Made by a program: the position numbers and the translations under genes. The notes under the pieces are model-generated. The model saw only the letters and a program-made list of their open reading frames with translations, was not told where the DNA came from and ran no database searches. DNA of 64,000 nt from a virus: positions 2,628 to 66,627 of the IMG/VR virus record IMGVR_UViG_3300030103_005932. The stretch is one strand, 5' to 3'. Position 1 is the stretch's first letter. Each line of letters begins with the position of its first letter. Shown piece after piece: positions 3,110 through 42,365 of this stretch.

Positions 3110-3333
3110 ATTTCCTCCACTTCTGACTCAATGTCTTCGTCTTCCCAACCAGTTAATTCCTCGTCGGCATATTGGCTGTTCTTGGCTCCACATCTCGTAC
3201 ACTTGTCGTCCTTCTCGTCCATAGGACCGTGTTCACAATCCATGCACCACCATTCATCCGCATAATCTCCTTTTGAGTCTTGCTTCTCCTCTTCAAGGTC
3301 TATGTTTGATAAAATGTTATCTAGTTCGTCCAT
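3103..3333 (-). CDS. small acidic zinc-ribbon protein
   Basis: CMDC...CTRC pairs, very D/E rich. Confidence 0.65.
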   Translation of the reverse strand: MDELDNILSNIDLEEEKQDSKGDYADEWWCMDCEHGPMDEKDDKCTRCGAKNSQYADEELTGWEDEDIESEVEEIW

Positions 3334-4622
3334 TATAGTTTCTCCCCTGGTTCAAAGCCTCTGAATCTTAAGAACCTTGGAAACCTGAGGCTCCATTCAT
3401 TTGAGGTGTCCTGGTTCTGTGTTATGGCATCTGCCCTAACTTCTACTATCTGGCCAATCAACTTGTCCTTGGCCTTCCAAAATGTTTCTCGGTCTGCGTC
3501 TGTGAGACCAGAGCCAACATTGGTCTTGATAAACTTATCCATGTCTGTACCCTCAACTATCAGGGCACCCAGTTTGCCTACATTCCGGCCTGTGCCTTCT
3601 TCTGTGTCTACAACTTTCAAAGACACTTCGATGAATGGCTTCACCTTCAACCAAAGGCTAGACCTTTTACATTCATAGATACCTGTTATTGGCTTCACCA
3701 TTATACCTTCAAAGCCTTTGTCTATACATAATTTGTTATAATCTGCGAACTGCTTCTGCCCGTCATCCTCACTCAAATTCATTTTCACAACTTCAACCTT
3801 TGAAATGTTAGGACCATATTCATATCCGTCTAACCATTCCTTTCTTTGACCCAAAGTGTTATTTGATCCACCCTCTTTGAAATGTTCAAGTGGTAGACAA
3901 TCAAATAGGTTAAGAACCGCATCATCTGTCTTTGCTCCGCCTTTTCTGTGTATCTCTCTCATAAGAGTTTGGAAGTCATCACTCATGACCTCTCCATCAA
4001 ACACCATAGACTCTGACATTTGGTCTAGCATTGAATCAAATTGTTCTAGTATCTTTGGAAAGTTATTCAATTCTTTGCCGTTCCTACTGAACATCTTCAC
4101 TTCATCTTTGTCCACATCACAGATGGTTATCACTCTAACTCCATCCAGTTTTGGTTCAACGATTACTTCTCCCGTCATTTTCTTTTCGTGCTTCTTGGAA
4201 TCATCTGCCAACATACACTCAAACACAGGAACCTTCATTGTTGAATGTTTATTGATTGTCTTATGGGTCACTCCACATCTCAAATCCTTTATTAATATCC
4301 TACGATACCAATCATTCCACTCTTCCATTTTAGATAGATCACATAGGTCTTGAATCACATCTCGCATTTCATTTCCTGTTAAAGTTCTATCTTCTAATTT
4401 TCTCAAAATATCATCAAACTCTTCCTGTCTTATCCCTGGCCCATCTTTCTTTGAAGTAGGAACCTTCTGTATTCCAAAAGTCCTAAAGCCATCTAAACAG
4501 GCACCAACACCGTTGAAGAATCTTATGTTCTCCGCATCGGACTCTCGTCTGATGATCGCTTCTTTCTTCAATCGGCTGTTATCCGATTCAAGTTCTTGTA
4601 TGACTTTCCAAGGTTTCATCAT
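3333..4622 (-). CDS. lig: ATP-dependent DNA ligase
   Basis: motif I EPKLDGVR, FDGE, EGIMVK, WLKVK, VGSG, SLRFPRF. Confidence 0.97.
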   Translation of the reverse strand: MMKPWKVIQELESDNSRLKKEAIIRRESDAENIRFFNGVGACLDGFRTFGIQKVPTSKKDGPGIRQEEFDDILRKLEDRTLTGNEMRDVIQDLCDLSKMEEWNDWYRRILIKDLRCGVTHKTINKHSTMKVPVFECMLADDSKKHEKKMTGEVIVEPKLDGVRVITICDVDKDEVKMFSRNGKELNNFPKILEQFDSMLDQMSESMVFDGEVMSDDFQTLMREIHRKGGAKTDDAVLNLFDCLPLEHFKEGGSNNTLGQRKEWLDGYEYGPNISKVEVVKMNLSEDDGQKQFADYNKLCIDKGFEGIMVKPITGIYECKRSSLWLKVKPFIEVSLKVVDTEEGTGRNVGKLGALIVEGTDMDKFIKTNVGSGLTDADRETFWKAKDKLIGQIVEVRADAITQNQDTSNEWSLRFPRFLRFRGFEPGEKL

Positions 4623-4776: not shown

Positions 4777-5073
4777 TCAACCTCTCCTCATCTTGCTGAT
4801 TTCTTTGGCATCTTGCTCATCCCATACCGGTACAAGGTTGCTCTTGTGGAGCATTCCGATGCCGATCAATTTCCGTTCTCCCGAGTATGTGAAAGCCTGT
4901 TTCTTACCACCTGTGAACACCGGAATCTTGTCTCCCGTGGGTACGCCATTCCTGTTGCCTCCACCATCAAAAACGAAAGTGCCTCTGGACTTTCTTTTCT
5001 TGATCTTGTCTATGCCCAATCGCTTTAGGTATAGGTTGTAGTCTGCCAATGCTTTTTTAAGACTCGCTCTCAT
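4777..5073 (-). CDS. conserved phage protein (YSGERKL-GIG-HKSNLVPV family); paralog of 48902-49264
   Basis: C-terminal ~50 aa nearly identical to the ORF at 48902. Confidence 0.75.
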   Translation of the reverse strand: MRASLKKALADYNLYLKRLGIDKIKKRKSRGTFVFDGGGNRNGVPTGDKIPVFTGGKKQAFTYSGERKLIGIGMLHKSNLVPVWDEQDAKEISKMRRG

Positions 5074-5660
5074 TATTTGTCCTTCATAAATCTGTGATTG
5101 CCTATCATAGCCGTCTCACTATAAACCGCCCCCCAACTTGGGTTCGCGATGTGTGGGTTATAGTAGAAGACAGCGCCGTCTGTTGGATCATTAGTGTAAT
5201 CTCCATTCATAATGAATAAAGCGACATGGATAGAATCCCTCCAAGCCGTCATGTTAGACTCTATCACTTCACCGTTCATATAGGTTGCCCAAATTATGTC
5301 CTTCTGTCCATCGCACCACCAACTGAACTGGCATCTGTTCTTGATTGGATAGTATTTTCTTTCGCTGTCGGGTAGGTCCTTATGCTGTCTAGTCTTCCAA
5401 CTCTCCCTAACAGGTCCTTGATGCACCACTCCACATATAGTATCTGGAAATCTGTCATCTTCAATTCTGTTCATAACCACATGGCCTATCGCAATCTTAC
5501 CTATCATTGGTTCTGCTCTACCTTCAAAGTAGATGTTCTCTGCCATACATTTTAATTCTGCCTCGTTCACACTCACGCCTGTCTCAACTTCATAGGACAT
5601 AGCAAGGGAGGCCATGACCGCCCTCGCTGATTGCAATACGAATTCCAATGTCCCTTGCAT
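5073..5660 (-). CDS. SleB-like cell wall hydrolase (Hydrolase_2)
   Basis: CMAENIYFEGRAE, VVMNR, FPDTICGVV, CQFSW, GAVFYY, IGNHRF. Confidence 0.92.
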   Translation of the reverse strand: MQGTLEFVLQSARAVMASLAMSYEVETGVSVNEAELKCMAENIYFEGRAEPMIGKIAIGHVVMNRIEDDRFPDTICGVVHQGPVRESWKTRQHKDLPDSERKYYPIKNRCQFSWWCDGQKDIIWATYMNGEVIESNMTAWRDSIHVALFIMNGDYTNDPTDGAVFYYNPHIANPSWGAVYSETAMIGNHRFMKDK

Positions 5661-6064
5661 TAGTCGGCTCTGCTTTCTGCATAGACCGTCATGCCATATT
5701 TTCTTAATTCATCTCTGAATGCCTCACAGGCTTCTTCTTTGATGCTCATTGATTGAGTAGATCTGTATTGGTGATCGTTTGGCATAATATCATAATAAGA
5801 TATTCTGTATCCACCACCATATCCTGTAGAACCTATGTCTGCTTTCTTCATGAAAGAAACAAATCTACCCCTAGCAGGATGAATTGAAACATTGGCGAAA
5901 CCACAATACATTGGTTCACCGTGTTTGGCTACAAAATCATCAACAGCCTTGATGGCAACTTTTCTCGCATTCAAGAACATATCTGCTGGATGAACTCCTT
6001 CTGCATTAAACTTCAAAAGGTCTTTGTTTTCGTCTATTGTTTTTTGCATTTTCAACTCCTTCAT
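5660..6064 (-). CDS. conserved hypothetical early phage protein
   Basis: CGFANV and QSMSIKE motifs; SD-led start at 6049, alternative upstream ATG at 6064. Confidence 0.75.
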   Translation of the reverse strand: MKELKMQKTIDENKDLLKFNAEGVHPADMFLNARKVAIKAVDDFVAKHGEPMYCGFANVSIHPARGRFVSFMKKADIGSTGYGGGYRISYYDIMPNDHQYRSTQSMSIKEEACEAFRDELRKYGMTVYAESRAD

Positions 6065-6073
6065 TTATAATAG

Positions 6074-6104
6074 ATAATAACATGGATACCCATACGGTCA
6101 ACCT
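6074..6104 (-). promoter_or_regulatory. early sigma70-type promoter
   Basis: AGG-TTGACC-16nt-TATTAT with extended TG. Confidence 0.8.
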
Positions 6105-6112
6105 CAGAATGG

Positions 6113-6157
6113 CACTATATCTAGTATCGACCTTTTTTCTTGGCACTAGATCTAGTG
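6113..6157. promoter_or_regulatory. tandem NrdR-box-like operator pair
   Basis: CACTATATCTAGTA (6113) and CACTAGATCTAGTG (6144), 31 bp apart, just upstream of the -35. Confidence 0.7.
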
Positions 6158-6525
6158 GTTTTTCGCGGTGCCCTATCGTAGTCTATCCATAATTCTCTTA
6201 ATTTTTGGCGTATTTCCTCTGGCGGTCCACCTTGCTCATCTATCCATGCCCTTAATATCTTAAATCCTCTGTCATAATCTGCTGGTTGGTTCACGACAGC
6301 ACCTTTTGGACCTAGAGGCAATGTCTTTGAAAAGTCATCTTTCTCTTCTGGTAATTGCTTGGCTTTGATAACCACTTTGCCTTCTAATTGATTCTTAATG
6401 TGATCTATGTCAAATGCTACAACTCTGGTAGGCTTCCGCGAACCTTTAATCCACACCTGCCACACGAATGGACCTATAGGTCCTTTAGGCATTCCGCCAT
6501 TCCAAGTATCATTCTTTTTGGGCAT
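6121..6525 (-). CDS. hypothetical phage protein
   Basis: AAGGAGG RBS; 134 aa. Confidence 0.75.
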   Translation of the reverse strand: MPKKNDTWNGGMPKGPIGPFVWQVWIKGSRKPTRVVAFDIDHIKNQLEGKVVIKAKQLPEEKDDFSKTLPLGPKGAVVNQPADYDRGFKILRAWIDEQGGPPEEIRQKLRELWIDYDRAPRKTTRSSAKKKGRY

Positions 6526-6647
6526 CTGCCCCTCCTTATATGTTTAATTCTATGAATCCTATAGCGAATAAGAACACCACAATTGGTCCTACCGTATAAG
6601 AAGCGAATATCATTGCATCACCAATTGATAATGCGACTGCCTTCACT

Positions 6648-6887
6648 CTAGCCACTTAATCTCCTCTCTTCTTCTTCCATTCTGTAATTGGCTTCTCCGG
6701 CAGGTGTTCTCCAAATGTTAAAAATTTGAACTCCTCTGCCTTTGAAGTCCTTGTAGAATTCTTTCAGTACCCTGTGAAACGGAGTAGGTGTATCCACTTC
6801 AACCAAAGTGTATCCACGAGTCATCGCCTCATCTTTGAGGTAGTCACCCTTCTCCTTTAGGAATCTATATTGGATATGTACCGACAC
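6648..6887 (-). CDS. hypothetical phage protein
   Basis: TAGTG coupling to upstream gene. Confidence 0.7.
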   Translation of the reverse strand: MSVHIQYRFLKEKGDYLKDEAMTRGYTLVEVDTPTPFHRVLKEFYKDFKGRGVQIFNIWRTPAGEANYRMEEEERRLSG

Positions 6888-7438
6888 TAGGCAACCTTCT
6901 TTCTTTTTTCGTTTTCATTCATCATTTCCAAATGTCTCTTCAAGATGTCGATGTGTTCAAGTATCGCATATCTCTCCAAAGGTTTGAACTCCTTGTCAAA
7001 AACTTCTTTGCCTTCTGATGTGTATCTGCTTTCAACATAGAACCAACTCATCTTAGGTTTGCCCAAAAAGTTTGTTTCACCTGCATCTTTCATTAGGTAG
7101 ACATATTGTTCTCCAGAGTTGAAACCGTTCTCAATGTAATCGGCTTCATCTTTGTAGACTTTATATCCACAGCCTTTCTCACCTCTGTCTCTTCCGTAAT
7201 AGCAATTCTGCACCTCATACATCGGATTAGACCTGTCATCAAAGTCTATCTGGTCTCCCACGATGTAATGCCATTTGGATGAGTCACCCAATTTGATTGC
7301 TTCAGTGACCTTTTTAGAGTCTTCCCAATGTTCACAAAGGTTGTATCCTAGTCCTCCTGGATAACCGTCCCAATGTTGGTAAGACGCAATTATTCTTCCG
7401 CTCTTCTGTTTTATACCTATCCTCGCTCTAGTGGCCAT
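6887..7438 (-). CDS. conserved phage protein (MATR-IG...YxHWDGYP family)
   Basis: characteristic MATRARIG / YQHWDGYP / YYGRDRGE motifs. Confidence 0.8.
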   Translation of the reverse strand: MATRARIGIKQKSGRIIASYQHWDGYPGGLGYNLCEHWEDSKKVTEAIKLGDSSKWHYIVGDQIDFDDRSNPMYEVQNCYYGRDRGEKGCGYKVYKDEADYIENGFNSGEQYVYLMKDAGETNFLGKPKMSWFYVESRYTSEGKEVFDKEFKPLERYAILEHIDILKRHLEMMNENEKRKKVA

Positions 7439-7803
7439 TATTTTCCTCCCGTTGCCTTGTTTAAGTTCTTGTTGATTAAATGTTGATCCCTAGCATCTGG
7501 AAAAGGCATTGGAATTTCCTCTCTGCCTTGATGCTTATCCTCGCTCAACTCTTCGGCCGTCTTTGGTTCAACCTTGTAAGGCTTCTTGCCCTCTTCTCTT
7601 TCACTCTTGCTAGGTTCTACCCAAATTTCAGGATCACGGATAACTTTCATTCCGTGAATCTCCAAAACTCTTGCCATGTTCTCCACAGCCTCTAATCTGT
7701 TAGTCCTTGTTGGAAAGTCTTTATCAGACAAATCTAACTTGATGTCTTCAAACAATCTAAACAATTCTTCTACTTCTTGTTGATCTAGGTGTGTTTTTGA
7801 CAT
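7438..7803 (-). CDS. hypothetical phage protein
   Basis: AAGGAGG RBS, TAATG coupling. Confidence 0.75.
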   Translation of the reverse strand: MSKTHLDQQEVEELFRLFEDIKLDLSDKDFPTRTNRLEAVENMARVLEIHGMKVIRDPEIWVEPSKSEREEGKKPYKVEPKTAEELSEDKHQGREEIPMPFPDARDQHLINKNLNKATGGK

Positions 7804-8195
7804 TAAGCAACCTCCTTAATCTCTTCTTTAGCAGGCCACCAGTCAATACCATTGTCTGAATATTGCCAAGTACCTTTCATGAATAAGAATAAATGACCAA
7901 CATTTTTTCTCATGAATTCTTTATTCCAAGATAAATTAGATTCAATAACATCACCAAATCCATCAACATACCAATAGTCGTCTTTTCTAAAACTTGGTAC
8001 CAATGCTGGTGAGTCAACTGCCTTAATGGCATCTTCTTTAGTTGGATATTTTTCTAATAAAATCTTAGCCATGTCTTCTGGCTTGATCTTCCAACTTGTT
8101 TCTACGGCAACCACATTGTCCGATCTGTCAATGTATCCTACCATAATCGCGTGTTTATTTTTATAGTCTATTTTTTGCATTTTCAACTCCTTCAT
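7803..8195 (-). CDS. hypothetical early protein
   Basis: SD-led start at 8180; 5' end ATGAAGGAGTTGAAAATGCAAAAA identical to the gene at 6064. Confidence 0.75.
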   Translation of the reverse strand: MKELKMQKIDYKNKHAIMVGYIDRSDNVVAVETSWKIKPEDMAKILLEKYPTKEDAIKAVDSPALVPSFRKDDYWYVDGFGDVIESNLSWNKEFMRKNVGHLFLFMKGTWQYSDNGIDWWPAKEEIKEVA

Positions 8196-8204
8196 TTATT
8201 CTTA

Positions 8205-8235
8205 ATAATAACATAGGTGGTAAAAGCGTCAACCT
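8205..8235 (-). promoter_or_regulatory. early sigma70-type promoter
   Basis: AGG-TTGACG-16nt-TATTAT with extended TG. Confidence 0.8.
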
Positions 8236-8244
8236 ACCAAAAAC

Positions 8245-8289
8245 CACAACATCTAGTGTCACAACTTGTGGTCGACACAAGATATAGTG
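8245..8289. promoter_or_regulatory. tandem NrdR-box-like operator pair
   Basis: CACAACATCTAGTG (8245) and CACAAGATATAGTG (8276), 31 bp apart, intergenic, just upstream of the -35. Confidence 0.72.
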
Positions 8290-8299
8290 CCATTTTAAA

Positions 8300-8554
8300 C
8301 TATCGTTCATATATGGCAAACCTATCTGCGAATTTTCTATGACAAAAAGCGGATGGTCTCCTGTATCCTCCCCAAGACCTTCCACGATACTTCTTCCTTA
8401 TCTTGACGACCTTTGCCAATCTACTCGCCATTTGGTGATTCTCCAAACTATTTGGAATATCTTTGGCAAAGGCCGATTCATTACAAGGAGCCTTATATTG
8501 ATCTAGCCAAACCTGTATGTCTTTGGGTAGGCAGAATTTTAATAGTCTATCCAT
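8300..8554 (-). CDS. hypothetical basic protein
   Basis: 84 aa, GGAG RBS, overlaps upstream gene. Confidence 0.7.
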   Translation of the reverse strand: MDRLLKFCLPKDIQVWLDQYKAPCNESAFAKDIPNSLENHQMASRLAKVVKIRKKYRGRSWGGYRRPSAFCHRKFADRFAIYER

Positions 8555-9236
8555 CTAATTTTTCTCCACAAGCGACATAGAAACTAGAACTCTTACCGGT
8601 GCTGTCTTCTTCTAGATAGTACACTTCACCGTCATATTCTACTTCATTGAAAACCCGGAATCCGTCTGCATTCACATATGATATCTTCAATTTGTCCATC
8701 TCAATACCGTCTGGACCTGTCTTAATGATGTCTGGTGTGTGCCATCCACCTTTGTTGAAATACTGACCGAACACATAATATTCATTCTCACAACTTTTTG
8801 AACTTACATGATGTTCTTCTGAACAGACAACTTCTGCTCCTAGGCTTTCAAAGTCCCCAAAGTCGTGTTGGATGTCTGCTACGAAGCCACCGTCCTCGTT
8901 CTCCAACGGCTTGCCATCCTTGTCTATTTCTTCGATATACATCGTCTGCGAGTCTTCCCATTCAGGTCCACTCATGTGACAGATGTTATTGTATTCGTAG
9001 AATGGTTGATCAAATTGTGCCCTCTTGGGTATCTCCTTGTTGGCATCATCGGGGTTGAAGTCCACCTGACCCATGTACTCTTCAAAACCATCGTTGTCTG
9101 ACCAATAGTCCCATTGGTCTTTGGTTATGGTTCCCATCGCAACTTCGCCACCGTACCTACTGAAGTTCAATCTGAAGTACCTGACGGGATTCTTGATAGT
9201 CTTAATCAATTTCCGTTTCTGTTCTATCGTTGCCAT
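8547..9236 (-). CDS. hypothetical acidic phage protein
   Basis: 229-aa ORF, TAATG coupling. Confidence 0.8.
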   Translation of the reverse strand: MATIEQKRKLIKTIKNPVRYFRLNFSRYGGEVAMGTITKDQWDYWSDNDGFEEYMGQVDFNPDDANKEIPKRAQFDQPFYEYNNICHMSGPEWEDSQTMYIEEIDKDGKPLENEDGGFVADIQHDFGDFESLGAEVVCSEEHHVSSKSCENEYYVFGQYFNKGGWHTPDIIKTGPDGIEMDKLKISYVNADGFRVFNEVEYDGEVYYLEEDSTGKSSSFYVACGEKLDG

Positions 9237-9517
9237 TAGTCGTTATGCTTATTCAAAAAATGTCCAAGGTGATCCGGTTCCCTGTCCTTTGCAGGAGTGT
9301 GACCAAGATAATTGTATCCTTCGTTCACTACCTTTGCCTGTCCATTGCCTGTGTTCAATACCCAACCCATTGGGCCTATCATCACAGCCTTCCCTTTGCA
9401 GGTCTGTCCTTGTTCGTTCTCGTACCAGACTCTGTCGCCTTTCTGTATCTCGTCAAACAACTCGTCCTCCCACGGTGTTGACAAATAATGATCTTCCTCT
9501 TCTTGTGTCCAAACCAT
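9236..9517 (-). CDS. hypothetical protein, possible SH3/KOW-like fold
   Basis: IQKGDRVW motif; GGAGG RBS. Confidence 0.7.
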   Translation of the reverse strand: MVWTQEEEDHYLSTPWEDELFDEIQKGDRVWYENEQGQTCKGKAVMIGPMGWVLNTGNGQAKVVNEGYNYLGHTPAKDREPDHLGHFLNKHND

Positions 9518-9675
9518 TATATTTCCTCCGCCGTTGTTTCAACTTCGTCACCACCCCATAAAGGTTCTCCCCAATCGCCACCGTCTGCTTCAGCGATCGC
9601 ATCTTCCTTCGTTGGTGCTTCTATTATCTGTTCGTAGGTGTCTAACCAAGTCATCTTTACTTTAAATTTAGGCAT
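9517..9675 (-). CDS. small acidic protein (52 aa; not in ORF track)
   Basis: MPKFKVKMTWLDTYEQIIEAPTKEDAIAEA...; GGAGG RBS; TAATG coupling at both ends. Confidence 0.7.
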   Translation of the reverse strand: MPKFKVKMTWLDTYEQIIEAPTKEDAIAEADGGDWGEPLWGGDEVETTAEEI

Positions 9676-10340
9676 TATACATCCTCCCCTATGTTAATCT
9701 TTTGACCTTTGGAATACTTGTAGACATCTTCGTTAAGTCTTTCTTCTTCCTGTTCAGCCTCATACTCCGCCATTGATTCCGTGATATTGAATATGTCATC
9801 CAATGTAGAACCTATGCCGTCCTGCCAAAAGTCATCTGTTGATTTGTAATCGCTTGGAGCATAACAATCATCTGAACCGTTATCCCACTCGCCCATGAAG
9901 TCACAGCCACCTTCGTAGTAGTATGCCTTCAGAGAACAATCATCATTGTCTCTTAAGAATTGTTCATAAGCACCAGTTGGTGGTGACCAGGCCGAACTGA
10001 ATCCAAATGATATTGTTGAATGACCTATCAAGGCGTCTGCCTGTTTATCAACACCATAGAATTCACAAACCTCCCACTTGGTCTGCCAATTGTTCACTCT
10101 CCAATCGTACCAATTTTCTGCTCCGAACTCTAACTTCCTAGCCTTTCTCTCATCCTTCTCTGCCTTTGTCTTTGCTATTGGACCTGCTTCAGTTTCCAAT
10201 AATGCCTTAGGCATCGGATGGAAGAATTGTAATAATCCATTTTCTGCATTATTACTTTCTTCATTTACAATCTTCTCTATCTTGTCTATCACGGAATTAG
10301 GTCCCGTGATAGTGACTTGATTATCGCACCAATTAGGCAT
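9675..10340 (-). CDS. DUF1281/YubB (Api92-like) ferredoxin-fold protein
   Basis: MPNWCDN, WYDWRVNNW, FSSAWSPP, YYEGGCDFMG motifs. Confidence 0.85.
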   Translation of the reverse strand: MPNWCDNQVTITGPNSVIDKIEKIVNEESNNAENGLLQFFHPMPKALLETEAGPIAKTKAEKDERKARKLEFGAENWYDWRVNNWQTKWEVCEFYGVDKQADALIGHSTISFGFSSAWSPPTGAYEQFLRDNDDCSLKAYYYEGGCDFMGEWDNGSDDCYAPSDYKSTDDFWQDGIGSTLDDIFNITESMAEYEAEQEEERLNEDVYKYSKGQKINIGEDV

Positions 10341-10650
10341 CAACCGCCTCCTTGGTATTAATTAAAGTAAGATGAGATCCTGGAACATTCCATCTCTGAC
10401 CTGCATCAGTCTTGACTAAAATGTATTTGATCTTCACTCTCTCAACCGTACCCTTTAGGATCGCACCATGTCTGCCTTGGAACGACACTCTGTCCATAAA
10501 TTTGAATTTATGAGCATCAGCGGTATGTAATTGATTTCTTCTTAACTTCACGGCATCTATCACAGCCGTTAAGTCTGCACCATTCATCTCATAGATGTCT
10601 GATATAACTTTCTGCGTCTTCTTGTTCATATGTTCAACTCCTTTGTTCAT
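10333..10650 (-). CDS. hypothetical early protein, SH3-like C-terminus
   Basis: DRVSF...GTVERVKIKYILV...WNVP; SD-led start at 10629. Confidence 0.75.
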   Translation of the reverse strand: MNKGVEHMNKKTQKVISDIYEMNGADLTAVIDAVKLRRNQLHTADAHKFKFMDRVSFQGRHGAILKGTVERVKIKYILVKTDAGQRWNVPGSHLTLINTKEAVDA

Positions 10651-10655
10651 AATTC

Positions 10656-10716
10656 AGTATAACATGGATGGTAATACCGTCAACCTACCTAAAAAAGTCG
10701 CTAAAAATGGAAATTT
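10656..10716 (-). promoter_or_regulatory. early sigma70-type promoter (leftward)
   Basis: AGG-TTGACG-16nt-TATACT, nearly identical to the promoter at 1900-1927. Confidence 0.82.
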
Positions 10717-10727
10717 TTTGCCCCCAA

Positions 10728-10773
10728 CACAAGATATAGTAGTTGATCTTGTTCCATGGCACTATACAATGTC
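10728..10773. promoter_or_regulatory. NrdR-box-like pair between divergent promoters
   Basis: CACAAGATATAGTA (10728) and degenerate CACTATACAATGTC (10760), 32 bp apart. Confidence 0.55.
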
Positions 10774-10800
10774 GGCATTATATTATATATTAATCATGGT

Positions 10801-10830
10801 GGTTGACGCTATCCTACTCCGTGTTATTAT
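10801..10830 (+). promoter_or_regulatory. early sigma70-type promoter (rightward)
   Basis: GG-TTGACG-16nt-TATTAT with extended TG. Confidence 0.8.
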
Positions 10831-10835
10831 GAAGT

Positions 10836-11144
10836 ATGAAACAAGGAGTTGAAATGTATAAAGAAAGAGTTAGAAAGAGAAAAGATGTGAATCCTTTCGC
10901 AATCAAGAAAGGCTTTTATATAACTGAAATGAACATGGGCATGGTACCAGGAGATGGATACGAACTGATATCTACTTCAGATATAGCAGGACCGTTTAAG
11001 ACTTTGGATAGAGCGAGAGCGGTATTCAAAAAGATAGTATGTGGAAACAAATGGAGAAATCATTGGGATTTTGGAATCTGTGGTCCAGAGCATAGACCAA
11101 ATGGATATCCCACTTCATGGTATCCTTTACAGGAGAGAATATGA
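10836..11144 (+). CDS. hypothetical early protein
   Basis: AAGGAGTTGAA RBS before ATG 10854; in-frame upstream ATG at 10836. Confidence 0.75.
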   Translation: MKQGVEMYKERVRKRKDVNPFAIKKGFYITEMNMGMVPGDGYELISTSDIAGPFKTLDRARAVFKKIVCGNKWRNHWDFGICGPEHRPNGYPTSWYPLQERI

Positions 11145-12230: not shown

Positions 12231-12749
12231 TTATCTTGGTTTGACAACCTTGGATTTGATAGGCGACTTGCCTCTCATTTTAGGACTGAATGATTTTCCT
12301 TTTTGACCTTTTCTCTTGATCTGAGCACCCTTCAACCTTAACGAACCTGCTCCTGACCTTTTGGTCTGTGCCAGTTTCTTACCCGCCACTCTGGCCTTCT
12401 GCTGTCTCTTCTTCCTGATCTTTGCTGATCTAACTGGATCTGTTTTTTGGAAACAGGTACTTGGCTTGGCCACGATACGACCTTTCCTTGGGCCAGACGA
12501 ACACCTAAATCCTTGCTTTGGCTTGCCGCCTTTTTGACGCCTTAAGATTTGGCTCACGCCTTCTGTGATGGCAGAATGGTCTTCATGCTCTTCCAAGTTG
12601 TCAACCTCTAGTGCCAAATCATTTTGTGGTACTATATCTTGTGGCACTATATCTTGTGCCGACCCGTTTTTGATGACACTAGATGTAGTATCGCAAGATA
12701 TTGTATCTTTTGATTCTTTTGGCGCGATGATCAGTTCCGATATCTTCAT
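12231..12749 (-). CDS. late protein with very basic C-terminus (possible internal head/DNA-binding protein)
   Basis: TAAATA 5 nt upstream of ATG; MKISEL N-terminus; GFRCSSGPRKGRIVAKPSTC core; K/R-rich tail. Confidence 0.7.
   Translation of the reverse strand: MKISELIIAPKESKDTISCDTTSSVIKNGSAQDIVPQDIVPQNDLALEVDNLEEHEDHSAITEGVSQILRRQKGGKPKQGFRCSSGPRKGRIVAKPSTCFQKTDPVRSAKIRKKRQQKARVAGKKLAQTKRSGAGSLRLKGAQIKRKGQKGKSFSPKMRGKSPIKSKVVKPR
12600..12705. repeat. array of NrdR-box-like palindromes with 15/32-bp spacing inside a CDS
   Basis: TACTATATCTTGTG 12630, CACTATATCTTGTG 12645, CACTAGATGTAGTA 12677, CGCAAGATATTGTA 12692; weaker copies at 12600 and 12615. Confidence 0.7.
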
Positions 12750-12763
12750 GCTGATATTTATTG

Positions 12764-12838
12764 CACCTTACACCTAACACCTAAACCTTATAGAACTAAA
12801 CTGAACTAAACCTTATAGAACTAATGCTTAAACTTAAA
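12764..12838. repeat. intergenic strand-biased short direct repeats
   Basis: CACCTWA x3 followed by CTAAACCTTATAGAACTAA x2 (12781, 12806). Confidence 0.8.
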
Positions 12839-13193: not shown

Positions 13194-14390
13194 ATGACAG
13201 AAGTAGATGGATCAAAAATACCGGCAACCGCAGATACATTCAACAACGATAAGATAGGTTGGATAGGATTAGGCAAACTCGGAATGCCATGTGCAGAAGT
13301 TATCGCTGAAAAAGGATTTCCAATCACAGGATATGATATCGAACCGAAACATAGCGATATGATCGACATCAAACAATCAATAGCAGAATGCGTCAAGGAT
13401 AGGTTGCATGTTTTTATAGCAGTACCAACTCCTCACGAAGAAGGATACGATGGCAGGGAACCAACCAGCCACAAAGAACCTAGAGATTTTGATTACACCA
13501 TACTGAAAGAAGTAGTCAAAGAATGCAACAAGCACATGGACAAATCACAAAACCTTGTGATAGTTTCTACGTTGCTACCAGGAACCATGAGGAGAGAAAT
13601 AGAACCATTGGTGCCTAACACACATCTGATGTACAATCCTTATCTGATAGCCATGGGCACCGTCAAATGGGATATGAAAAATCCTGAGATGATCATGATA
13701 GGAAGTAGGCTGAACAGGAGATTGCAACCGAGCAAGACCAGTATGCTGGCGGACTTTTATCACAAGATATGCGATAGAACACCCAGGATAGAATTTGGAA
13801 CATGGGAAGAATGTGAGAGCATGAAGATATTCTACAACACTTTCATCAGCACAAAACTTGTTTTGGTCAACATGATACAGGACGTGGCCGAACGCATAGG
13901 TTACATGGATGTGGACAGAGTCACACAGTCTTTGGGTAGTTGTGACAAAAGGATTATGAGTGAACACTACATGAAGGCCGGCATGGGCGACGGAGGAGCG
14001 TGTCATCCGAGAGACAATATTGCCCTTAGATGGTTGGCCAGGGAATATGGACTAGGATACGATCTGTTTGAAAGTGTGATGAGTGCCCGAGAAAAACAAG
14101 CAGAAAACATGGCAGAAGCAATACTGAAACATGGCAATAACATATGGTTCAGTTCAGATAGTTATAAATCCGGCACAGGAATGGTAGACGGATCGTATAG
14201 CCTATTGGTGCAAAACTACGTGATAAAACATGGCGGAAAAATAGTAAATGGCTTCGACAACCCTGTTGAAGTAATTGTTAGGGTACATGAAACGGATAAT
14301 TTCTCGGCAGATAACAAAACTATCATATTTGATCCATGGAGATCGTATCCCAAAGCAGAAAATGTCGTATATTATGGTAAATATAAGTAG
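13194..14390 (+). CDS. ugd: UDP-glucose/GDP-mannose 6-dehydrogenase
   Basis: GLGKLG Rossmann motif, FIAVPTP, YNPYL, KIFYN, GMGDGGACHPRD catalytic Cys. Confidence 0.92.
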   Translation: MTEVDGSKIPATADTFNNDKIGWIGLGKLGMPCAEVIAEKGFPITGYDIEPKHSDMIDIKQSIAECVKDRLHVFIAVPTPHEEGYDGREPTSHKEPRDFDYTILKEVVKECNKHMDKSQNLVIVSTLLPGTMRREIEPLVPNTHLMYNPYLIAMGTVKWDMKNPEMIMIGSRLNRRLQPSKTSMLADFYHKICDRTPRIEFGTWEECESMKIFYNTFISTKLVLVNMIQDVAERIGYMDVDRVTQSLGSCDKRIMSEHYMKAGMGDGGACHPRDNIALRWLAREYGLGYDLFESVMSAREKQAENMAEAILKHGNNIWFSSDSYKSGTGMVDGSYSLLVQNYVIKHGGKIVNGFDNPVEVIVRVHETDNFSADNKTIIFDPWRSYPKAENVVYYGKYK

Positions 14391-14410: not shown

Positions 14411-14824
14411 ATGCCCAATTCAGATAATGCTTTTGGAACTTATAATAAGATAACAATGATCTATGAAAGAGTATGGCCAGATCCTGCTCCGGCAGATACT
14501 ACACAGTTCAGCCAGGCATGGAAAGAAGGCGCAGAAGGTATTGCCGAAGCAAAGGCATGGCATTTCACAGATGAAGGATTGGCAGTCTTTGACGAGTGTT
14601 GCACAGAGTTGCAATGGGGACTTGTTGAGGATGCAGATGGATGGCCAATGAAACTGAAAGCAACCATGACTTTTGGAACAAAGGGCACACCCGGCATAGC
14701 CGCGGCAGATGACTGGGCAGAACAGTTCAAATCAAGAAAGACAGCATTAATTAATGCCAACAATTTCTTTAAGAATGGTACAACTGCAACAAATGTTACC
14801 GAGTCTTCGGAACACTTATTTTAA
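14411..14824 (+). CDS. hypothetical late protein
   Basis: TAAATA upstream, AGGAG RBS. Confidence 0.7.
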   Translation: MPNSDNAFGTYNKITMIYERVWPDPAPADTTQFSQAWKEGAEGIAEAKAWHFTDEGLAVFDECCTELQWGLVEDADGWPMKLKATMTFGTKGTPGIAAADDWAEQFKSRKTALINANNFFKNGTTATNVTESSEHLF

Positions 14825-15711
14825 TCTCGCCATTTAGTACCACAGGTCATAGCACAGACAGGATTACATTTTTTCGTTTTCCATGTGGCAATTAACTTGT
14901 GATGGTCCTCAAGAAGTACCACGGGCCTGCCAGGCATATCATATCCATGATAACAACAGGGTGACACTTCACCTTTGGCATTTATGTAAGTGTCTTTCAG
15001 CATTAGATGTTCACACTTGATGTCATAGATTTTTTCTTCAACATGAAAGTTTTGATGCGTCTCTTTGTATCTTTTGATTCCCGCAGGTACATCATATTTG
15101 CCAGGGGCAAGTGATCCGTCTCTGGGAAGTATCCAGTGTGTGATCTTGCCTTCTCTGTTCAAAGCCGGGCCATGACTACGCCCGTGATCCTCAACACTAA
15201 AATTTTCAAAACCCATGCCAAGGGCAAGTTTCCTGGTTTCTTCTTCCTGGTGAGAGTTATGTGCAAAAGGTATCCACTTCCAGGTAGCATGTCCTCCTGC
15301 CGCAATAAACCATTTGGCTCTCTCCATCACTTTGTTCCATTGCACATCTTGTCGATATAAGTGGTTTGTATCTTCCAGTCCGTCTATGCTGAATCTACAT
15401 TCAACTCCTAGTTCTGCAAGACCCTCCCAGGTTTCTTTTGTCCCTATACTACCGTTCGATGTGACTGATGTTCTGCAATTTGTAAGTTCGGCTAACTGAA
15501 CAATGTTTGGATTCATCATGGGATCGCCTAGATGTCCATTGAAGTAAACATAATTTCTTTCGGGAAATCTTGCCAATGCCTCTTTGAATTTTTCTACAGA
15601 TAGATTTACTTCCGGATATACTCCTTCGACTTTGTAGCCATAAAGGCTTCTGGGACAGAGCGGACATCTAGCATTACAATAAGTGCTGGCCTCTACGTGT
15701 AATCTCTTCAT
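14821..15711 (-). CDS. radical SAM/SPASM-twitch protein
   Basis: CNARCPLC, GHLGDP, SNGS, FSIDGLEDTNHLYR, C-terminal PCC...C..C. Confidence 0.92.
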   Translation of the reverse strand: MKRLHVEASTYCNARCPLCPRSLYGYKVEGVYPEVNLSVEKFKEALARFPERNYVYFNGHLGDPMMNPNIVQLAELTNCRTSVTSNGSIGTKETWEGLAELGVECRFSIDGLEDTNHLYRQDVQWNKVMERAKWFIAAGGHATWKWIPFAHNSHQEEETRKLALGMGFENFSVEDHGRSHGPALNREGKITHWILPRDGSLAPGKYDVPAGIKRYKETHQNFHVEEKIYDIKCEHLMLKDTYINAKGEVSPCCYHGYDMPGRPVVLLEDHHKLIATWKTKKCNPVCAMTCGTKWRD

Positions 15712-29252: not shown

Positions 29253-29609
29253 GTGAGATTTTTCGAATTTAACAAAAGCGATACAGACCTTGAGTCGGCT
29301 CTGATCAATGTGCTGATGAACATGAAAGGCGATGCTGACGAAAAAGATCAAGCAAGTGATGTTAGCATGGATGCTGTTCAACAGATAATGAGCAATACAG
29401 GATATCCTGCATTCAACTATGATGTCTTTAAAAGAATCTATGACCAGGATGGTGATCTAAAAAATGTTGTTGCGGACTTTGATAACGAAAAAATTGTTAT
29501 CAAAACAGACAAGGAAGCAGAAAAAGATCCTGCTATGGACTACGACAATCAAGGTTCTACAGATGTTGTCAAAAAGATGGCAAGGTCTGCAATGAAAAGA
29601 AGATCTTAA
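29253..29609 (+). CDS. conserved late protein (MRFFEF N-terminus)
   Basis: GTG start; C-terminal VKKMARSAM motif. Confidence 0.65.
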   Translation: MRFFEFNKSDTDLESALINVLMNMKGDADEKDQASDVSMDAVQQIMSNTGYPAFNYDVFKRIYDQDGDLKNVVADFDNEKIVIKTDKEAEKDPAMDYDNQGSTDVVKKMARSAMKRRS

Positions 29610-30904
29610 AGATCCTTCAACCAATCACTTATTTCAGGAAACACTTTAGTATAATCTGTACCTCTACGTTTATCTAATAATGTAAGGTAGGTCTTTAATT
29701 GTTTTTGCTTACGTAGGTCAGGTTTTGCATCGGCAAATTCCTTTACATGGCCTTCCATGTATTTCTTTTGTGCTATCTTTACACTGTCCGGAAATCCATC
29801 GGTGTTAGTATCAAATGTATCGATCGCTTTTGTTAGGCCCAACGCATTTATCTTATCTCCGAATATTCCTGGATATAGGTATCCGTTACCACTTTCCATG
29901 TCTCTGTCAGCCGCCTTCAAGAAACTCCAATAAATTGGTTTTGTTTTGCTCCACTGGTTTATCTTCTCAACCATTTGGACCATGCCTGGCACAGATGTCA
30001 CTGTCAGTGCTGAATTTATCTGTTGTTGCACAGAAGTGTTGTGTAAAATATATTCAAAGTTTTTTTCAAATAGTTTTAGATCAAGTCCCGATCTTACATA
30101 CTCTCCTGGTTCTCCCCATGCGTCTAGGCTCCCTACAATGACCAATTTGTCTAGTCGTTGCTGTTCAATTAATTTTTCTAAACGATCAACCCAACGCTTG
30201 ACTCTCTCATGCTCAACATTTAAATTGCTAAAGAAAATTAGTGTCAGATCAGGTAATGTTCTCTTTTCTAAGAATTGTATCATCCTTTCTGTTTCTACTT
30301 GTAAAAATGGTTCACCACCAAACACATAGATCTTATGGAGGTGTTGGATATTTTTTTCAAACCATTCAAACAATCGATCGGTGTCGCGTTTTATGTTTGG
30401 ATTTAATGTAAAATCATCTGGGTCTAAAACAACTCCATCTTGATCGAATCTTCCAAACCTTTTTTGCTCTGCATGTATTTTGTTACTGTAATGAGGTCCA
30501 CAATAGATGCATTTCATGTTACAAGTGTTCCCCCAGTATATTTCAAGTTGTCTTGGGGTCACTGTTGTGGCGTCAAGATCTTTATCCAACTCGGGCGGTG
30601 CAGTATTACCTTCGAGATATAACTGAATCACTCTATCACTATGTCCTCCTGCTTCTTCGATGTGCTTACAACTTTCGCAACCTGATGGCCATTTACCGTC
30701 TAGCATCTGTTGTCTTTCATTAATCTTTCCTGGTTGATTGTGAAAGTTAAACTCCCCATTTACATTGTAATCATGCAACTTCGCTTTATGACAACTTGCA
30801 CTCTTTCCATCTGTAAGATAGACTGTGCTGAAAGTCCACTTTAATTGACAGGGAAGTCCTTTAGTGATTGGAAATTTTTTTGGCGGTTGTTTTGATATAC
30901 CCAT
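29606..30904 (-). CDS. radical SAM protein with N-terminal twitch domain
   Basis: CQLKW...SCH...CESC; CNMKCIYC; FGGEPF; SLDAWG..GEYVR. Confidence 0.9.
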   Translation of the reverse strand: MGISKQPPKKFPITKGLPCQLKWTFSTVYLTDGKSASCHKAKLHDYNVNGEFNFHNQPGKINERQQMLDGKWPSGCESCKHIEEAGGHSDRVIQLYLEGNTAPPELDKDLDATTVTPRQLEIYWGNTCNMKCIYCGPHYSNKIHAEQKRFGRFDQDGVVLDPDDFTLNPNIKRDTDRLFEWFEKNIQHLHKIYVFGGEPFLQVETERMIQFLEKRTLPDLTLIFFSNLNVEHERVKRWVDRLEKLIEQQRLDKLVIVGSLDAWGEPGEYVRSGLDLKLFEKNFEYILHNTSVQQQINSALTVTSVPGMVQMVEKINQWSKTKPIYWSFLKAADRDMESGNGYLYPGIFGDKINALGLTKAIDTFDTNTDGFPDSVKIAQKKYMEGHVKEFADAKPDLRKQKQLKTYLTLLDKRRGTDYTKVFPEISDWLKDL

Positions 30905-32085: not shown

Positions 32086-32161
32086 TAGTTTACTCCACAG
32101 GCCATTATGCTTGTTAGATTGATGGTTGTGATATATGACATTATAATGTATAATTATCTTT

Positions 32162-42307: not shown

Positions 42308-42365
42308 AAATAATATTTAAGCACAGAGTTGACCTTTTGTCAACAATGTGTATAATTAGAAGTAT

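Follow-up and report, generated by a model that had tools for sequence, protein, structure and literature searches.

Paired NrdR-type boxes at early promoters of a marine giant phage: candidate operators for a host nucleotide sensor

Results

The window analysed here is a stretch of 64,000 nucleotides taken from an IMG/VR virus record of 66,627 bp, which is itself a fragment of a phage genome with an estimated completeness of 19%. A consensus scan confirmed four TG-extended sigma-70-like promoters (Table 1). P6k drives ORF 5660-6064, a cell-wall hydrolase gene (5073-5660) and small ORFs, and would also drive an ATP-dependent DNA ligase gene (3333-4622) if transcription reads through, while P8k drives ORFs 7803-8195, 7438-7803, 6887-7438, 6648-6887 and 6121-6525, none with an assigned function, and the small ORFs served by the rightward promoter of the divergent pair begin with the ATG at 10854 and extend to about 12210. 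Pfam and/or PHROGs scans of 20 ORFs between 3.3 and 13.1 kb gave no named function for 17 of them, those named being the DNA ligase, the cell-wall hydrolase and a UDP-glucose dehydrogenase that lies further right. Near-identical modules of early promoter and ribosome-binding site flank cassettes of small ORFs, and copies of the promoter are joined in metagenome contigs (1886->10649 and 6049->10633). Of the 11 promoters of this type that the record contains, four have pairs of palindromic boxes beside them and seven are unboxed; in the related loci L004 and L008 the boxed promoter module precedes different genes. The genes downstream of the boxes have no known link to dNTP synthesis, an observation that counts against a role of the boxes as operators for host NrdR.

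Table 1. Promoters, boxes and box-bearing ORF (centres are given relative to the estimated promoter start).
Feature	Position	Strand	Sequence	Remarks
P6k early promoter	6101->6074	-	TTGACC, 16 nt, TG-n-TATTAT	
P8k early promoter	8232->8205	-	TTGACG, 16 nt, TG-n-TATTAT	
Leftward promoter of divergent pair	10683->10656	-	TTGACG, 16 nt, TATACT with TG	
Rightward promoter of divergent pair	10803->10830	+	TTGACG, 16 nt, TATTAT with TG	
Pair 1, proximal box	6113..6126		CACTATATCTAGTA	centre about -52.5 (leftward start); overlaps stop codon of ORF 6121-6525 (-)
Pair 1, distal box	6144..6157		CACTAGATCTAGTG	perfect palindrome; centre about -83.5; within 3' coding end of ORF 6121-6525 (-)
Pair 2, proximal box	8245..8258		CACAACATCTAGTG	centre about -53.5
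Pair 2, distal box	8276..8289		CACAAGATATAGTG	intergenic; centre about -84.5
Pair 3, good box	10728..10741		CACAAGATATAGTA	top match of independent bacterial matrix; centre about -86 (leftward promoter) and -103 (rightward promoter)
Pair 3, degenerate partner	10760..10773		CACTATACAATGTC	4/6 key positions kept; 3/14 pattern positions off
Five-box cluster	12615..12705			starts 12615 (weak, 2 mismatches), 12630, 12645, 12677, 12692
ORF 12231-12749	12231-12749	-		172 aa; very basic C-terminal half

The preliminary description had reported an imperfect palindrome in three pairs, 31 bp (6113/6144 and 8245/8276) and 32 bp (10728/10760) apart from start to start, and on re-reading all these coordinates proved exact, as did the gaps of 11 bp (pair 1) and 12 bp (pair 2) that separate the proximal box from the -35 hexamer and the position of the third pair between two divergent promoters; its list was incomplete, the cluster at 12615-12705 having been missed. 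The palindrome, CACWAnATnTWGTG, was searched with the pattern of that description, which gave, with at most one mismatch, 18 strand matches at 10 places, and none of 100 shuffles reached this number (mean 1.94, sd 1.59, largest 7). Likewise, the 66,627-bp record has four pairs spaced by 31 or 32 bp, where 200 dinucleotide shuffles gave 0.015 on average and never more than 1. The window and seven relatives together supplied 50 unique sites, in which C4, A6, A8, T9, T11 and G13 are almost invariant (96-100%), positions 5 and 12 are A or T and positions 7 and 10 are free, conservation figures that are partly circular because the sites were picked by the pattern itself. In the boxes of the window, 6 or 7 of the 8 positions between C4 and G13 are A or T. 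A reading of the boxes as hairpins was rejected, positions 5/12 being complementary in 14 of 34 unique sites and positions 7/10 in 6 of 34.

Measured from the promoter starts, the pair centres lie at -52.5/-83.5 or -53.5/-84.5, and at -62.5/-93.5 in L004 and L008, owing to a 10-bp insertion between box and -35. The boxes are placed upstream of the core promoter and overlap neither -35 nor -10, which is atypical for NrdR, whose boxes are frequently located on these elements according to the available part of PMC9110341.

The cluster at 12.6 kb occupies codons 15-45, in the 5' coding part, of ORF 12231-12749, and its boxes encode short peptide repeats of the product. No match to this ORF was obtained in Pfam and PHROG scans; its ATG is preceded by an ATAAATA motif that also precedes a tail-fibre-like gene. 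Successive boxes are spaced by 15, 15, 32 and 15 bp, so that 12645/12677 form a canonical 32-bp pair and 12630/12692 lie 62 bp apart. Across the clade, start-to-start spacings of 31 bp occur 13 times and of 32 bp seven times, to which the cluster adds 15, 47 and 62 bp. The 15-bp spacing corresponds to no described NrdR arrangement and in this respect argues against binding by host NrdR.

In the portion available of a J Bacteriol 2026 paper (PMC13584703), the conserved positions of the 16-bp NrdR box are the same six named above, and operators have a linker of 15-16 bp and an AT-rich centre; the phage boxes agree with this published definition in key positions and linker length. The 14-nt core of box 8245 is identical to positions 2-15 of the synthetic consensus box of the same source, where the paired consensus is bound by E. 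coli and S. coelicolor NrdR with a KD of 46-91 nM. An independent matrix was derived from 45 unique boxes that precede RNR genes of two alphaproteobacterial orders, a comparison that the preliminary description had proposed, and its two best matches in the 66.6-kb record are boxes 10728 and 8245. It recovered three pairs (6113/6144, 8245/8276 and 12645/12677), compared with 0.007 on average in 300 shuffles, and of the distances tested, 20-49 bp, only 31, 32 and 47 bp yielded qualifying pairs. Just outside the 16-bp box, G occupies the flanking position in 83% of 18 clade-locus boxes; among 307 other viral boxes A stands there in 65% (G in 20% elsewhere), and most bacterial operators have A or T. 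This flank hints that the sequence recognized in the clade may involve an added or different specificity.

Conservation in related phages, another proposed check, was also borne out. Among the seven closest loci (IMG/VR contigs, 67-87% protein identity) the cluster is kept in all seven, a pair before the homologous gene in five (L002, L003, L005, L006 and L008) and the second pair also in four (L002, L003, L005 and L006), the box letters differing at free positions only. Five whole records of relatives each have their boxes within a single region of 7-10 kb. In G005, a complete distant relative of 328 kb, boxes are 45 and 55 bp apart, a spacing that does not fit the tetramer expected of NrdR and therefore speaks against host NrdR. 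In IMG/VR at large, 81 perfect pairs have a spacing of 31 bp and at least 119 one of 32 bp, as against 8 with 36 bp; at least 200 other viral loci carry such perfect pairs, mostly away from RNR genes. Seven loci (L133, L142, L161, L167, L171, L202 and L212), which serve as a positive control, have perfect pairs directly before phage nrdD. These share the perfect 31-bp pairs with the phage studied here, and there 13 bp separate the end of the pair from the reductase start codon, which fits the expected role of an RNR operator, whereas in our phage the pairs precede genes without assigned function. No paper on NrdR boxes at non-RNR phage genes was found in the titles and abstract beginnings of the literature searched.

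The phage encodes its own class Ia reductase, and the sole ATP-cone in the record is that of NrdA. As had been claimed, no nrdR gene was detected, since TIGR00244 and PF22811 gave no match in the record at E<=10, a result that at 19% completeness covers only a fifth of the phage; nor was one found in the 11 records of the group (this record and 10 relatives, including the complete G005). The claim that nrdA lacks a box also held, the best candidate in 35000-35400 having 3 mismatches, and since nrdAB would be the expected target this counts against host NrdR as the ligand. On the host side, five genomes of the candidate lineages were checked and all contain NrdR, and operators with at least 11 of 12 key positions lie upstream of RNR genes at 26 of 29 and 21 of 30 loci (shuffles 0.2-0.6%), counts that are not independent because genomes within an order are related. 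The phage tmRNA is alpha-type (RF01849, 108.8 bits) and its cytochrome b is 57-71% identical to those of SAR11-like and HIMB59-like alphaproteobacteria, and the host of the clade is probably alphaproteobacterial. The GC content of the phage, 39%, is well above the ~30% of SAR11-like genomes, which counts against the reading of the boxes as operators for host NrdR.

Discussion

We hypothesize, with a probability of roughly 0.6, that the boxes are operators for host NrdR which a clade of marine giant phages has co-opted. The motif, its spacing and conservation, the phase-locked placement and the occurrence of NrdR in the candidate host lineages are observed, and from them we infer binding by NrdR, the sign of its effect and the physiological logic outlined below. 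The preliminary description had proposed that host NrdR either gates these early operons or is titrated by the boxes; this interpretation is partly supported, in that every computational check it suggested favours NrdR-type boxes.

NrdR combines a zinc ribbon with an ATP-cone and senses the dATP/ATP state. Loaded with dATP and ATP it would assemble as a tetramer on two boxes three helical turns apart and sharply kink the DNA. In accessible sections of PMC12051234, NrdR loaded with both nucleotides binds DNA, and with ATP alone it binds poorly. At the 6.1-kb and 8.2-kb promoters such a complex is predicted to cover approximately -44 to -92, next to the -35 hexamer on its upstream side, which is the usual contact zone of the RNA polymerase alpha subunits with upstream DNA; it may also block read-through from the upstream operon, and at 12.6 kb it would be located within the transcribed 5' region of a gene. 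Most likely, expression of the three early operons and of the 12.6-kb gene would go down when dATP is plentiful and up when it is scarce, and early gene expression would in this way be tied to dNTP supply. Because the boxes leave -35 and -10 free, repression from -52/-83 is something we infer, and regulation from that placement could be either repression or activation. The location of the boxes at early promoters, and not at nucleotide-synthesis genes, suggests that the phage reads or drains the DNA-precursor sensor of its host.

Sites for host transcription factors are known at phage promoters, namely LexA in temperate phages, PhoB and NtcA in cyanophages and CtrA in alphaproteobacterial phages. 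As in those cases, a host sensor at phage promoters would read a physiological signal of the host, with the difference that here the sensor would be NrdR and the signal the dATP/ATP state. According to the part available of PMC5343134, the NrdR regulon of Proteobacteria has few members (3.2 genes per genome) and is a dedicated dNTP-synthesis regulon, which counts against the involvement of host NrdR.

The phage boxes resemble the operators of E. coli nrdAB, nrdHIEF and nrdDG, S. coelicolor nrdRJ and nrdAB, and Listeria nrdAB and nrdDG in the six key positions, the two boxes, the linker of 15-16 bp and the AT-rich centre. Unlike these, they are not at RNR genes, the phage nrdAB itself being without boxes, they lie wholly upstream of -35 and clear of the polymerase site, they include a five-box array in a coding region, and their flank is G, not A. 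Precedents for the placement are described in the available part of PMC12051234, where the boxes of S. pneumoniae nrdHEF are entirely upstream of -35 and a distal pair of L. monocytogenes nrdAB is separated from the proximal operator by more than 100 bp; a promoter may have multiple boxes as well. Nevertheless, in that source these upstream sites serve RNR operons, unlike those of the phage, and the pneumococcal spacers are 24-26 bp, compared with the 15-16 bp of the phage linker.

An alternative that we regard as unlikely is that the ligand of the boxes is a phage-encoded protein and not host NrdR. Such a binder could be an NrdR paralogue, or a derivative reduced to the zinc ribbon, from the 80% of the genome outside the fragment, which covers only 19%; gut phages with nrdR genes are listed in the accessible portion of PMC10294663, and a 78-aa NrdR-like zinc ribbon without ATP-cone occurs in two unrelated IMG/VR contigs. 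However, besides the negative result in the 11 group records, two IMG/VR scans with alphaproteobacterial NrdR returned 0 and 3 weak matches, none with clade boxes. The binder could equally be an unrelated early regulator or replication initiator recognising an 18-bp palindrome (G-n-CAC...GTG-n-C), for which the 12.6-kb cluster would serve as iterons. The 15-bp and 45/55-bp arrays do resemble iterons or an operator array more than NrdR pairs, the boxes are upstream of promoters as activator sites are, and the flank, G at position 0 and C at position 17, is clade-specific and recurs as GGGAC in G005. Yet the HIMB59-like order also has genuine nrdA operators with a clade-like GGCAC flank, the Pfam and/or PHROGs scans of the 20 ORFs between 3.3 and 13.1 kb showed no DNA-binding domain, and an unrelated protein would have to match by chance not only the six key positions of NrdR operators and their free ones but also the 31-32 bp pairing.

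Titration alone, in which the pairs would act as a sponge that derepresses the host ribonucleotide reductase, any effect on phage promoters being incidental, seems to us improbable. With four consensus-grade pairs per replicating genome, NrdR would also be drawn from host nrd promoters under the operator hypothesis, there as a side effect. A sponge would agree with the 12/12 key positions of three of the four phage pairs, compared with 10-11/12 in operators of the candidate host lineages, with a cluster inside a coding region where no promoter needs boxes, with the escape of the phage nrdAB from NrdR, and with the strong up-regulation of the host NrdR regulon in pneumococcal phage infection (PMC6755750, available part). 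It requires, however, no set distance to a promoter, and the centres keep to -52/-83, or exactly 10 bp further, across relatives, a phase-locking that favours promoter-tied control over a pure decoy; moreover, pairs occur at only a minority of the promoters of this type, and for a phage with its own class Ia reductase the gain from derepressing the host enzyme is not obvious.

Sites upstream of -35 that keep their helical face are typical of class I activators and architectural proteins. Activation by NrdR, whose phase-locked upstream bends would help RNA polymerase and turn the operons on at high dATP, would suit the helical face kept after the 10-bp insertion but is highly improbable, given that the core promoters are near consensus and exist as identical unboxed copies, so that an activator should be needless, and that NrdR appears only as a repressor in the available parts of PMC12051234, PMC13584703 and PMC9110341.

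The arrangement of the early region has a counterpart elsewhere. T4-type phages possess promoter-bounded early gene cassettes (PeSL), and the promoter modules that flank small ORF cassettes in the phage studied here are similar to these. In contrast to PeSL, a stem-loop partner was not identified, and the NrdR-type pairs constitute an extra element on a subset of the cassettes.

Results

The phage record and its likely host

The record is a linear IMG/VR sequence of 66,627 bp, of which the window comprises bases 2628-66627, and since its completeness according to CheckV is 19% it is considered to represent about one fifth of a giant phage, related contigs being up to 243-328 kb in size. Its DNA was detected in marine metagenomes of 10 studies, and a megablast search with positions 6000-11000 against 50,697 phage records retrieved no cultured near-identical relative. 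Besides a ribonucleotide reductase (RNR), the record encodes a cytochrome b, sugar-modifying enzymes and radical-SAM proteins. The best bacterial relatives of the cytochrome b, 57-71% identical, are found in SAR11-like, Fonsibacter-binned and HIMB59-like genomes; the 9.9-kb Fonsibacter-binned contig that carries the best match was considered as phage DNA and rejected as such, being treated as bacterial because neither NrdB nor a phage gene adjoins its cytochrome b. Of the Pelagibacterales genomes sampled, 36 of 61 gave a BLAST match to the phage tmRNA, as did 3 of 61 from a HIMB59-like order. Together, the tmRNA, the cytochrome b and the occurrence in metagenomes point to a marine phage of an alphaproteobacterial host, the GC content of the phage (about 39%) being well above that of these bacteria. 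The cytochrome b gene directly adjoins nrdB on its 3' side and is, as a part of the respiratory chain, an unusual auxiliary gene in a phage. The set of genes for sugar and radical chemistry, with two UDP-glucose dehydrogenase-like genes, a DegT-type aminotransferase and four radical-SAM-like genes, is large for one fifth of a phage genome.

Features discussed in the text and their coordinates
Feature	Position	Strand	Details
Boxed promoters	6101, 8232, 10683; 10803	leftward; rightward	regular expression; all four confirmed by consensus scan
Promoter-module joints in metagenome contigs	1886/10649, 6049/10633, 10693/2943
ORF with box cluster in codons 15-45	12231-12749	-	172 aa, C-terminal half very basic, no family match
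Sugar/radical chemistry genes (jointly)	13194-14390, 61776-62582, 45228-46289, 14821-15711, 29606-32247, 49279-50190
Tail-fibre-like gene	32880-34499
NrdA	35345-37747		class Ia RNR, with ATP-cone
NrdB	37763-38863		class Ia RNR
Cytochrome b, bc1-type, full-length	38876-40129	+	Pfam Cytochrome_B 1.5e-66, N and C domains both present
Alphaproteobacterial permuted tmRNA	42009-42365	-	Rfam RF01849, 108.8 bits; ARAGORN tag ANKRALGFADLTVSMPALRLAA
Repeats of G005, a complete distant relative	L399 1311-1475 (G005:C1:127310-127475)		three of form CCGGGACTAnATnTAGTn, upstream of TTGACT-N17-TGCTATATT promoter, complete 328-kb genome
Loci with pairs before portal/terminase genes	L156 and 13 other IMG/VR loci; L211; L323 and 2 others

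NrdR-type boxes in the early region

The preliminary description had reported three pairs of palindromic boxes resembling the sites of NrdR, a bacterial repressor that senses dATP/ATP, and each of these boxes was recovered at its position (pair 1, 6113/6144; pair 2, 8245/8276; pair 3, 10728/10760). Allowing at most one mismatch, the pattern used there gives 18 strand matches at 10 places against an expected 1.94, a number reached in none of 100 shuffles; over the entire record, the same tolerance gives 11 sites, of which 8 fall within 6.1-12.7 kb. Four pairs, spaced by 31, 31, 32 and 32 bp, are present in the record, compared with 0.015 in 200 dinucleotide shuffles. A cluster missing from that description is composed of boxes at 12615 (weak), 12630, 12645, 12677 and 12692, among which only 12645/12677 display the canonical spacing of 32 bp, the distance 12630-12692 being 62 bp. 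The cluster lies inside an ORF, where the 15-bp period of the boxes corresponds to five codons and the boxes code for short repeats in the peptide. Beside it, the AT-rich stretch 12750-12830 holds the direct repeats CACCTAA and AACCTTATAGAACTAA, each twice, and was considered as an origin-like element. The linker of pair 2 (8259-8275) has a 13-bp palindrome of its own, CCACAAGTTGTGG, which resembles a box devoid of its centre and is kept as CCACAGGTTGTGG in three related loci (L002, L003, L005).

According to the available portions of Shahid et al. (J Bacteriol 2026, PMC13584703), an NrdR operator consists of two partly palindromic 16-bp boxes separated by a linker of 15-16 bp, a single box not being bound. 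Within the box, C4, A6, A8, T9, T11 and G13 are highly conserved, C4 and G13 being critical and 8 bp apart with at least 63% A/T between them, and positions 3, 5, 7, 10 and 14 tolerate change (PMC13584703). In the phage, the six key positions are complete in boxes 6113, 6144, 8245, 8276, 10728, 12630, 12645 and 12677, the degenerate box 10760 retaining 4 of 6, and the A/T content between C4 and G13 is 6 or 7 out of 8 in every good box. The same positions reach frequencies of 96-100% in 50 unique sites of the clade (the window and its seven closest related IMG/VR loci, L002-L008), in which spacings of 31 bp occur 13 times and of 32 bp seven times. Moreover, the core of box 8245 equals, letter for letter, positions 2-15 of the synthetic consensus of PMC13584703. 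Judged on these sequences, the phage sites appear to match the published definition of an NrdR operator on all its points.

As a guard against circularity, an independent matrix was derived exclusively from bacterial RNR operators, using 60 RNR loci of the HIMB59-like order and the Pelagibacterales. Pairs were sought in the 400 bp before the reductase gene, and the best one per locus was chosen by its score on the six key positions alone, because real operators deviate from the strict core; the exact tandem core pattern has no match in five candidate-host genomes. Pairs with at least 11 of 12 key positions were found in 26 of 29 and 21 of 30 RNR loci versus 0.2-0.6% of shuffled upstream regions, counts that are not independent owing to kinship within an order. 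When the record was scanned with the resulting alphaproteobacterial matrix (45 unique boxes), a check proposed in the preliminary description, the phage boxes 10728 and 8245 ranked first and second in the 66.6 kb, and three pairs were obtained, the mean over 300 shuffles being 0.007. Of the spacings tested (20-49 bp), only 31, 32 and 47 bp yielded qualifying pairs.

Promoters and placement of the boxes

The leftmost 10.6 kb of the window form a leftward array of small genes, interrupted by near-identical modules of a promoter and a ribosome-binding site with the layout AGGTTGAC, 16 nt, TG-n-TAnnnT, about 20 nt, AAGGAGTTGAA-n-ATG. A regular expression finds 11 promoter copies in the record, four of which have boxes within 140 bp upstream. 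With the transcription start set at 7 nt past the -10 hexamer, the estimated positions of the box centres are -52.5/-83.5 for the 6.1-kb promoter and -53.5/-84.5 for the 8.2-kb promoter; pair 3, between divergent promoters, is centred at about -86/-118 from the leftward and -103/-71 from the rightward one. Centres at -52/-83 imply that the boxes abut the core promoters without overlapping them, those at 6.1 kb extending over the stop codon and final codons of the upstream gene. Overlap with the RNA polymerase site or the transcription start, which is usual but not universal for NrdR, is thus not observed in the clade, where centres fall at -52/-83 or -62/-93; earlier cases of NrdR boxes placed upstream, such as those of S. 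pneumoniae nrdHEF, are given in PMC12051234. The boxes are likewise not located at promoters of RNR operons, the downstream genes being mostly of no known function, plus a hydrolase and a ligase; the statement that no box precedes the phage nrdA also stands, the best candidate there having three mismatches. Among 20 ORFs scanned at 3.3-13.1 kb, the named functions are DNA ligase and cell-wall hydrolase, with UDP-glucose dehydrogenase further right; most ORFs have no match at all and no DNA-binding domain was detected among them. No convincing minus-strand terminator was found between the operons. Two marine metatranscriptome runs include parts of the early region as contigs only, possibly of DNA, which give no starts, ends or strand and in which stretches without coverage carry no meaning.

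In one marine metagenome, DNA contigs fuse one copy of the promoter module to another, omitting 4.6-8.8 kb, and in L004 and L008 the boxed module stands before different genes; these joints and gene differences resemble the outcome of a shuffling of cassettes at the promoter repeats. The T4-type late promoter TATAAATA was considered and discarded, as its 3 matches against 4.07 expected show no enrichment. Immediately before four ORFs stands a less strict motif, in which 5-7 nt separate ATAAATA from the ATG (motif at 12761, 23861, 32866 and 40145); the tail-fibre-like gene and the 172-aa basic protein with the box cluster are among these ORFs. Unlike other genes, these have no AAGGAG-type ribosome-binding site in the interval up to the ATG, and the motif may represent a late promoter whose leader is very short.

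Conservation in related phages

When the product of the first gene in the 6.1-kb operon was used as a protein query, 38 IMG/VR loci were retrieved. The seven closest, 67-87% identical, have 5-9 boxes each; of the rest, 26 have none and five more distant ones have 1-3. Box conservation had been put forward as a check, and the cluster was found inside the homologous ORF in all seven close loci. A pair precedes the homologous gene in five of the seven and the second pair is also kept in four, L004 having its pair at a different promoter of the family and L007 no promoter boxes. The boxes of the relatives vary at positions 5, 7, 10 and 12 and the linkers drift, as sites that bind a protein and are under selection would be expected to do. 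The pair lies at -62.5/-93.5 in L004 and L008, where 10 bp are inserted between box and -35, and the helical face is therefore retained. Across the whole records of five relatives, the boxes are restricted to one region of 7-10 kb in each. The cultured pelagimyophages HTVC008M and Mosig, which hold the best relatives of NrdA, were discarded as models, since their box counts against a reversed-pattern control are 2 vs 3 and 5 vs 5.

Box pairs in other viruses

When IMG/VR was scanned for exact matches to a pair of perfect boxes, 81 stretches were obtained at a spacing of 31 bp and at least 119 at 32 bp, versus 8 at 36 bp, the spacing used as control, and this excess indicates that viral DNA follows the same spacing rule. 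Among the matches listed, an ORF related to NrdA, NrdB or NrdD was found in 12 of 199 loci by phmmer, whose queries may have missed class II and distant class I reductases; in seven of the listed loci a pair immediately precedes a phage nrdD, and these loci act as a positive control. Also among the matches listed, an ORF of at least 70 aa starts within 300 bp downstream, on either side, of 160 of 202 pairs. The largest groups of such ORFs in this set are a portal protein (14 loci), an unnamed 119-aa protein (13), an unnamed 95-aa protein (8; in four of these loci an antirepressor gene lies opposite) and NrdD (7); MazG, terminase and other portal proteins are also represented. With perfect pairs at no fewer than 200 further viral loci, NrdR wiring may be widespread in viruses, and the counts suggest that NrdR-type operators at viral non-RNR genes are common and reach well past this clade, although proviruses are among the contigs and other proteins may use some of the pairs. 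By portal type, perfect pairs within 300 bp upstream were seen, among the matches listed, at PF04860 genes in 14 loci, lambda-type in one and SPP1-type in three, and at the large terminase gene in three. In L133, L161 and L171, contigs of about 0.31-0.32 GC, an nrdD with a perfect pair upstream is split into several frames under table 11, which suggests either a reassigned stop codon or broken genes.

Discussion

NrdR operators are already known, and so is the use of host regulators by phages. NrdR itself has been described, in the portions available of two recent papers, as a repressor that is specific to RNR and controls very few genes (PMC9110341, PMC5343134). A search of titles and abstract openings found no description of NrdR boxes at phage non-RNR genes, and the words 'phage' and 'virus' are absent from the accessible text of PMC12051234 and PMC9110341. 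As to the protein that binds the boxes, the preliminary description saw no nrdR in the phage, and searches with TIGR00244, PF22811 and PF03477 agree in finding no NrdR, NrdR zinc ribbon or extra ATP-cone in the record. The same three models detected none of these in the ten related records, one of which is a complete genome of 328 kb bounded by terminal repeats, and two IMG/VR scans with an alphaproteobacterial NrdR retrieved nothing from the clade. In the candidate host lineages, where that description had advised looking for the gene, NrdR is encoded in five of five genomes, the host being known by inference only. NrdR proteins are reported to bind foreign boxes, and those of E. coli and S. 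coelicolor bind a synthetic consensus pair with a 15-bp linker with a KD of 46-91 nM (PMC13584703, from the excerpts available). We think that host NrdR binds the phage box pairs.

Everything beyond an NrdR-type operator we infer. As far as the accessible text of PMC12051234 goes, DNA binding by NrdR needs both dATP and ATP, ATP alone leading to non-binding oligomers. At the phage sites, the most likely consequence of NrdR binding would be dATP-dependent repression. The kinked NrdR tetramer would cover about -44 to -92, the zone of the polymerase alpha subunits and upstream DNA. Because no convincing minus-strand terminator parts the operons, we propose that bound NrdR might halt read-through from the upstream operon, and at 12.6 kb it could act as a roadblock within the transcribed region. 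The early operons would be active while dNTPs are scarce and would be switched off once the box-free phage reductase and the breakdown of host DNA raise dATP. An activating or architectural role of NrdR would suit the upstream, phase-locked placement equally well. The titration of NrdR, raised in the preliminary description as an alternative, may operate in parallel: three of the four phage pairs have 12 of 12 key positions compared with 10-11 in candidate-host operators, and multiplying phage DNA should therefore also titrate the repressor, stripping it from host nrd promoters. Up-regulation of the host NrdR regulon on infection by a pneumococcal phage is reported in the accessible part of PMC6755750. 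A broader proposal is that NrdR offers phages in general an entry for reading host dATP/ATP, and that in this clade of giant marine phages it times the early operons, from phase-locked upstream sites and an intragenic array, while the operators strip host nrd promoters; we put this forward tentatively and regard it as rather doubtful.

A protein encoded by the phage itself could instead bind the boxes, which we consider improbable, and yet it stays a rival on several grounds. The controlled genes have no visible tie to dNTP synthesis, to which Proteobacterial NrdR regulons, averaging 3.2 genes, are devoted according to the available text of PMC5343134. Directly outside the 16-bp box, G is found in 83% of clade boxes versus A in 65% of 307 other viral boxes, but GGCAC flanks are also present in genuine nrdA operators of the HIMB59-like order. 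Furthermore, the 15-bp spacing of the cluster is not among the described NrdR arrangements, four fifths of the phage genome lie outside the record, and the three GAC-type boxes that G005 has upstream of a TTGACT promoter are spaced by 45 and 55 bp, distances that an NrdR tetramer should not bridge. The half-sites of these G005 repeats are the same as in the boxes of the window and their arrangement is different. Hairpins or terminators are an unlikely explanation because the box arms do not covary, positions 5/12 being complementary in 14 of 34 unique sites and 7/10 in 6 of 34; the one terminator-like match, overlapping box 12645 on the plus strand, was treated as a by-product of the palindrome. 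A sigma-54 reading of TGGCAC-N5-TTGT was rejected by eye, with the -12 GC absent and TTG in some boxes only.

If the sites work as host NrdR operators, phages would sense or manipulate the dNTP supply via a host sensor, which would constitute a new tie between nucleotide economy and infection timing in abundant ocean bacteria. NrdR would then act from positions and arrays undescribed in cellular operators, offering a test of structural models of the tetramer on DNA. For a repressor regarded as RNR-specific such a claim is unexpected, and it is testable with short DNA fragments and existing proteins; the phage promoters, sigma-70-like in appearance, may for that reason work in E. coli. Binding of foreign boxes by heterologous NrdR, as described in the accessible portions of PMC13584703, makes this a directly testable question, for which fragments of less than 100 bp are needed. 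A further observation concerns L401 and L402 (about 5001-5240), contigs unrelated to the window, which encode an NrdR-like zinc ribbon of about 78 aa, with 40% identity over 43 residues and no ATP-cone, and this protein could be a phage-encoded, nucleotide-blind mimic or competitor of NrdR.
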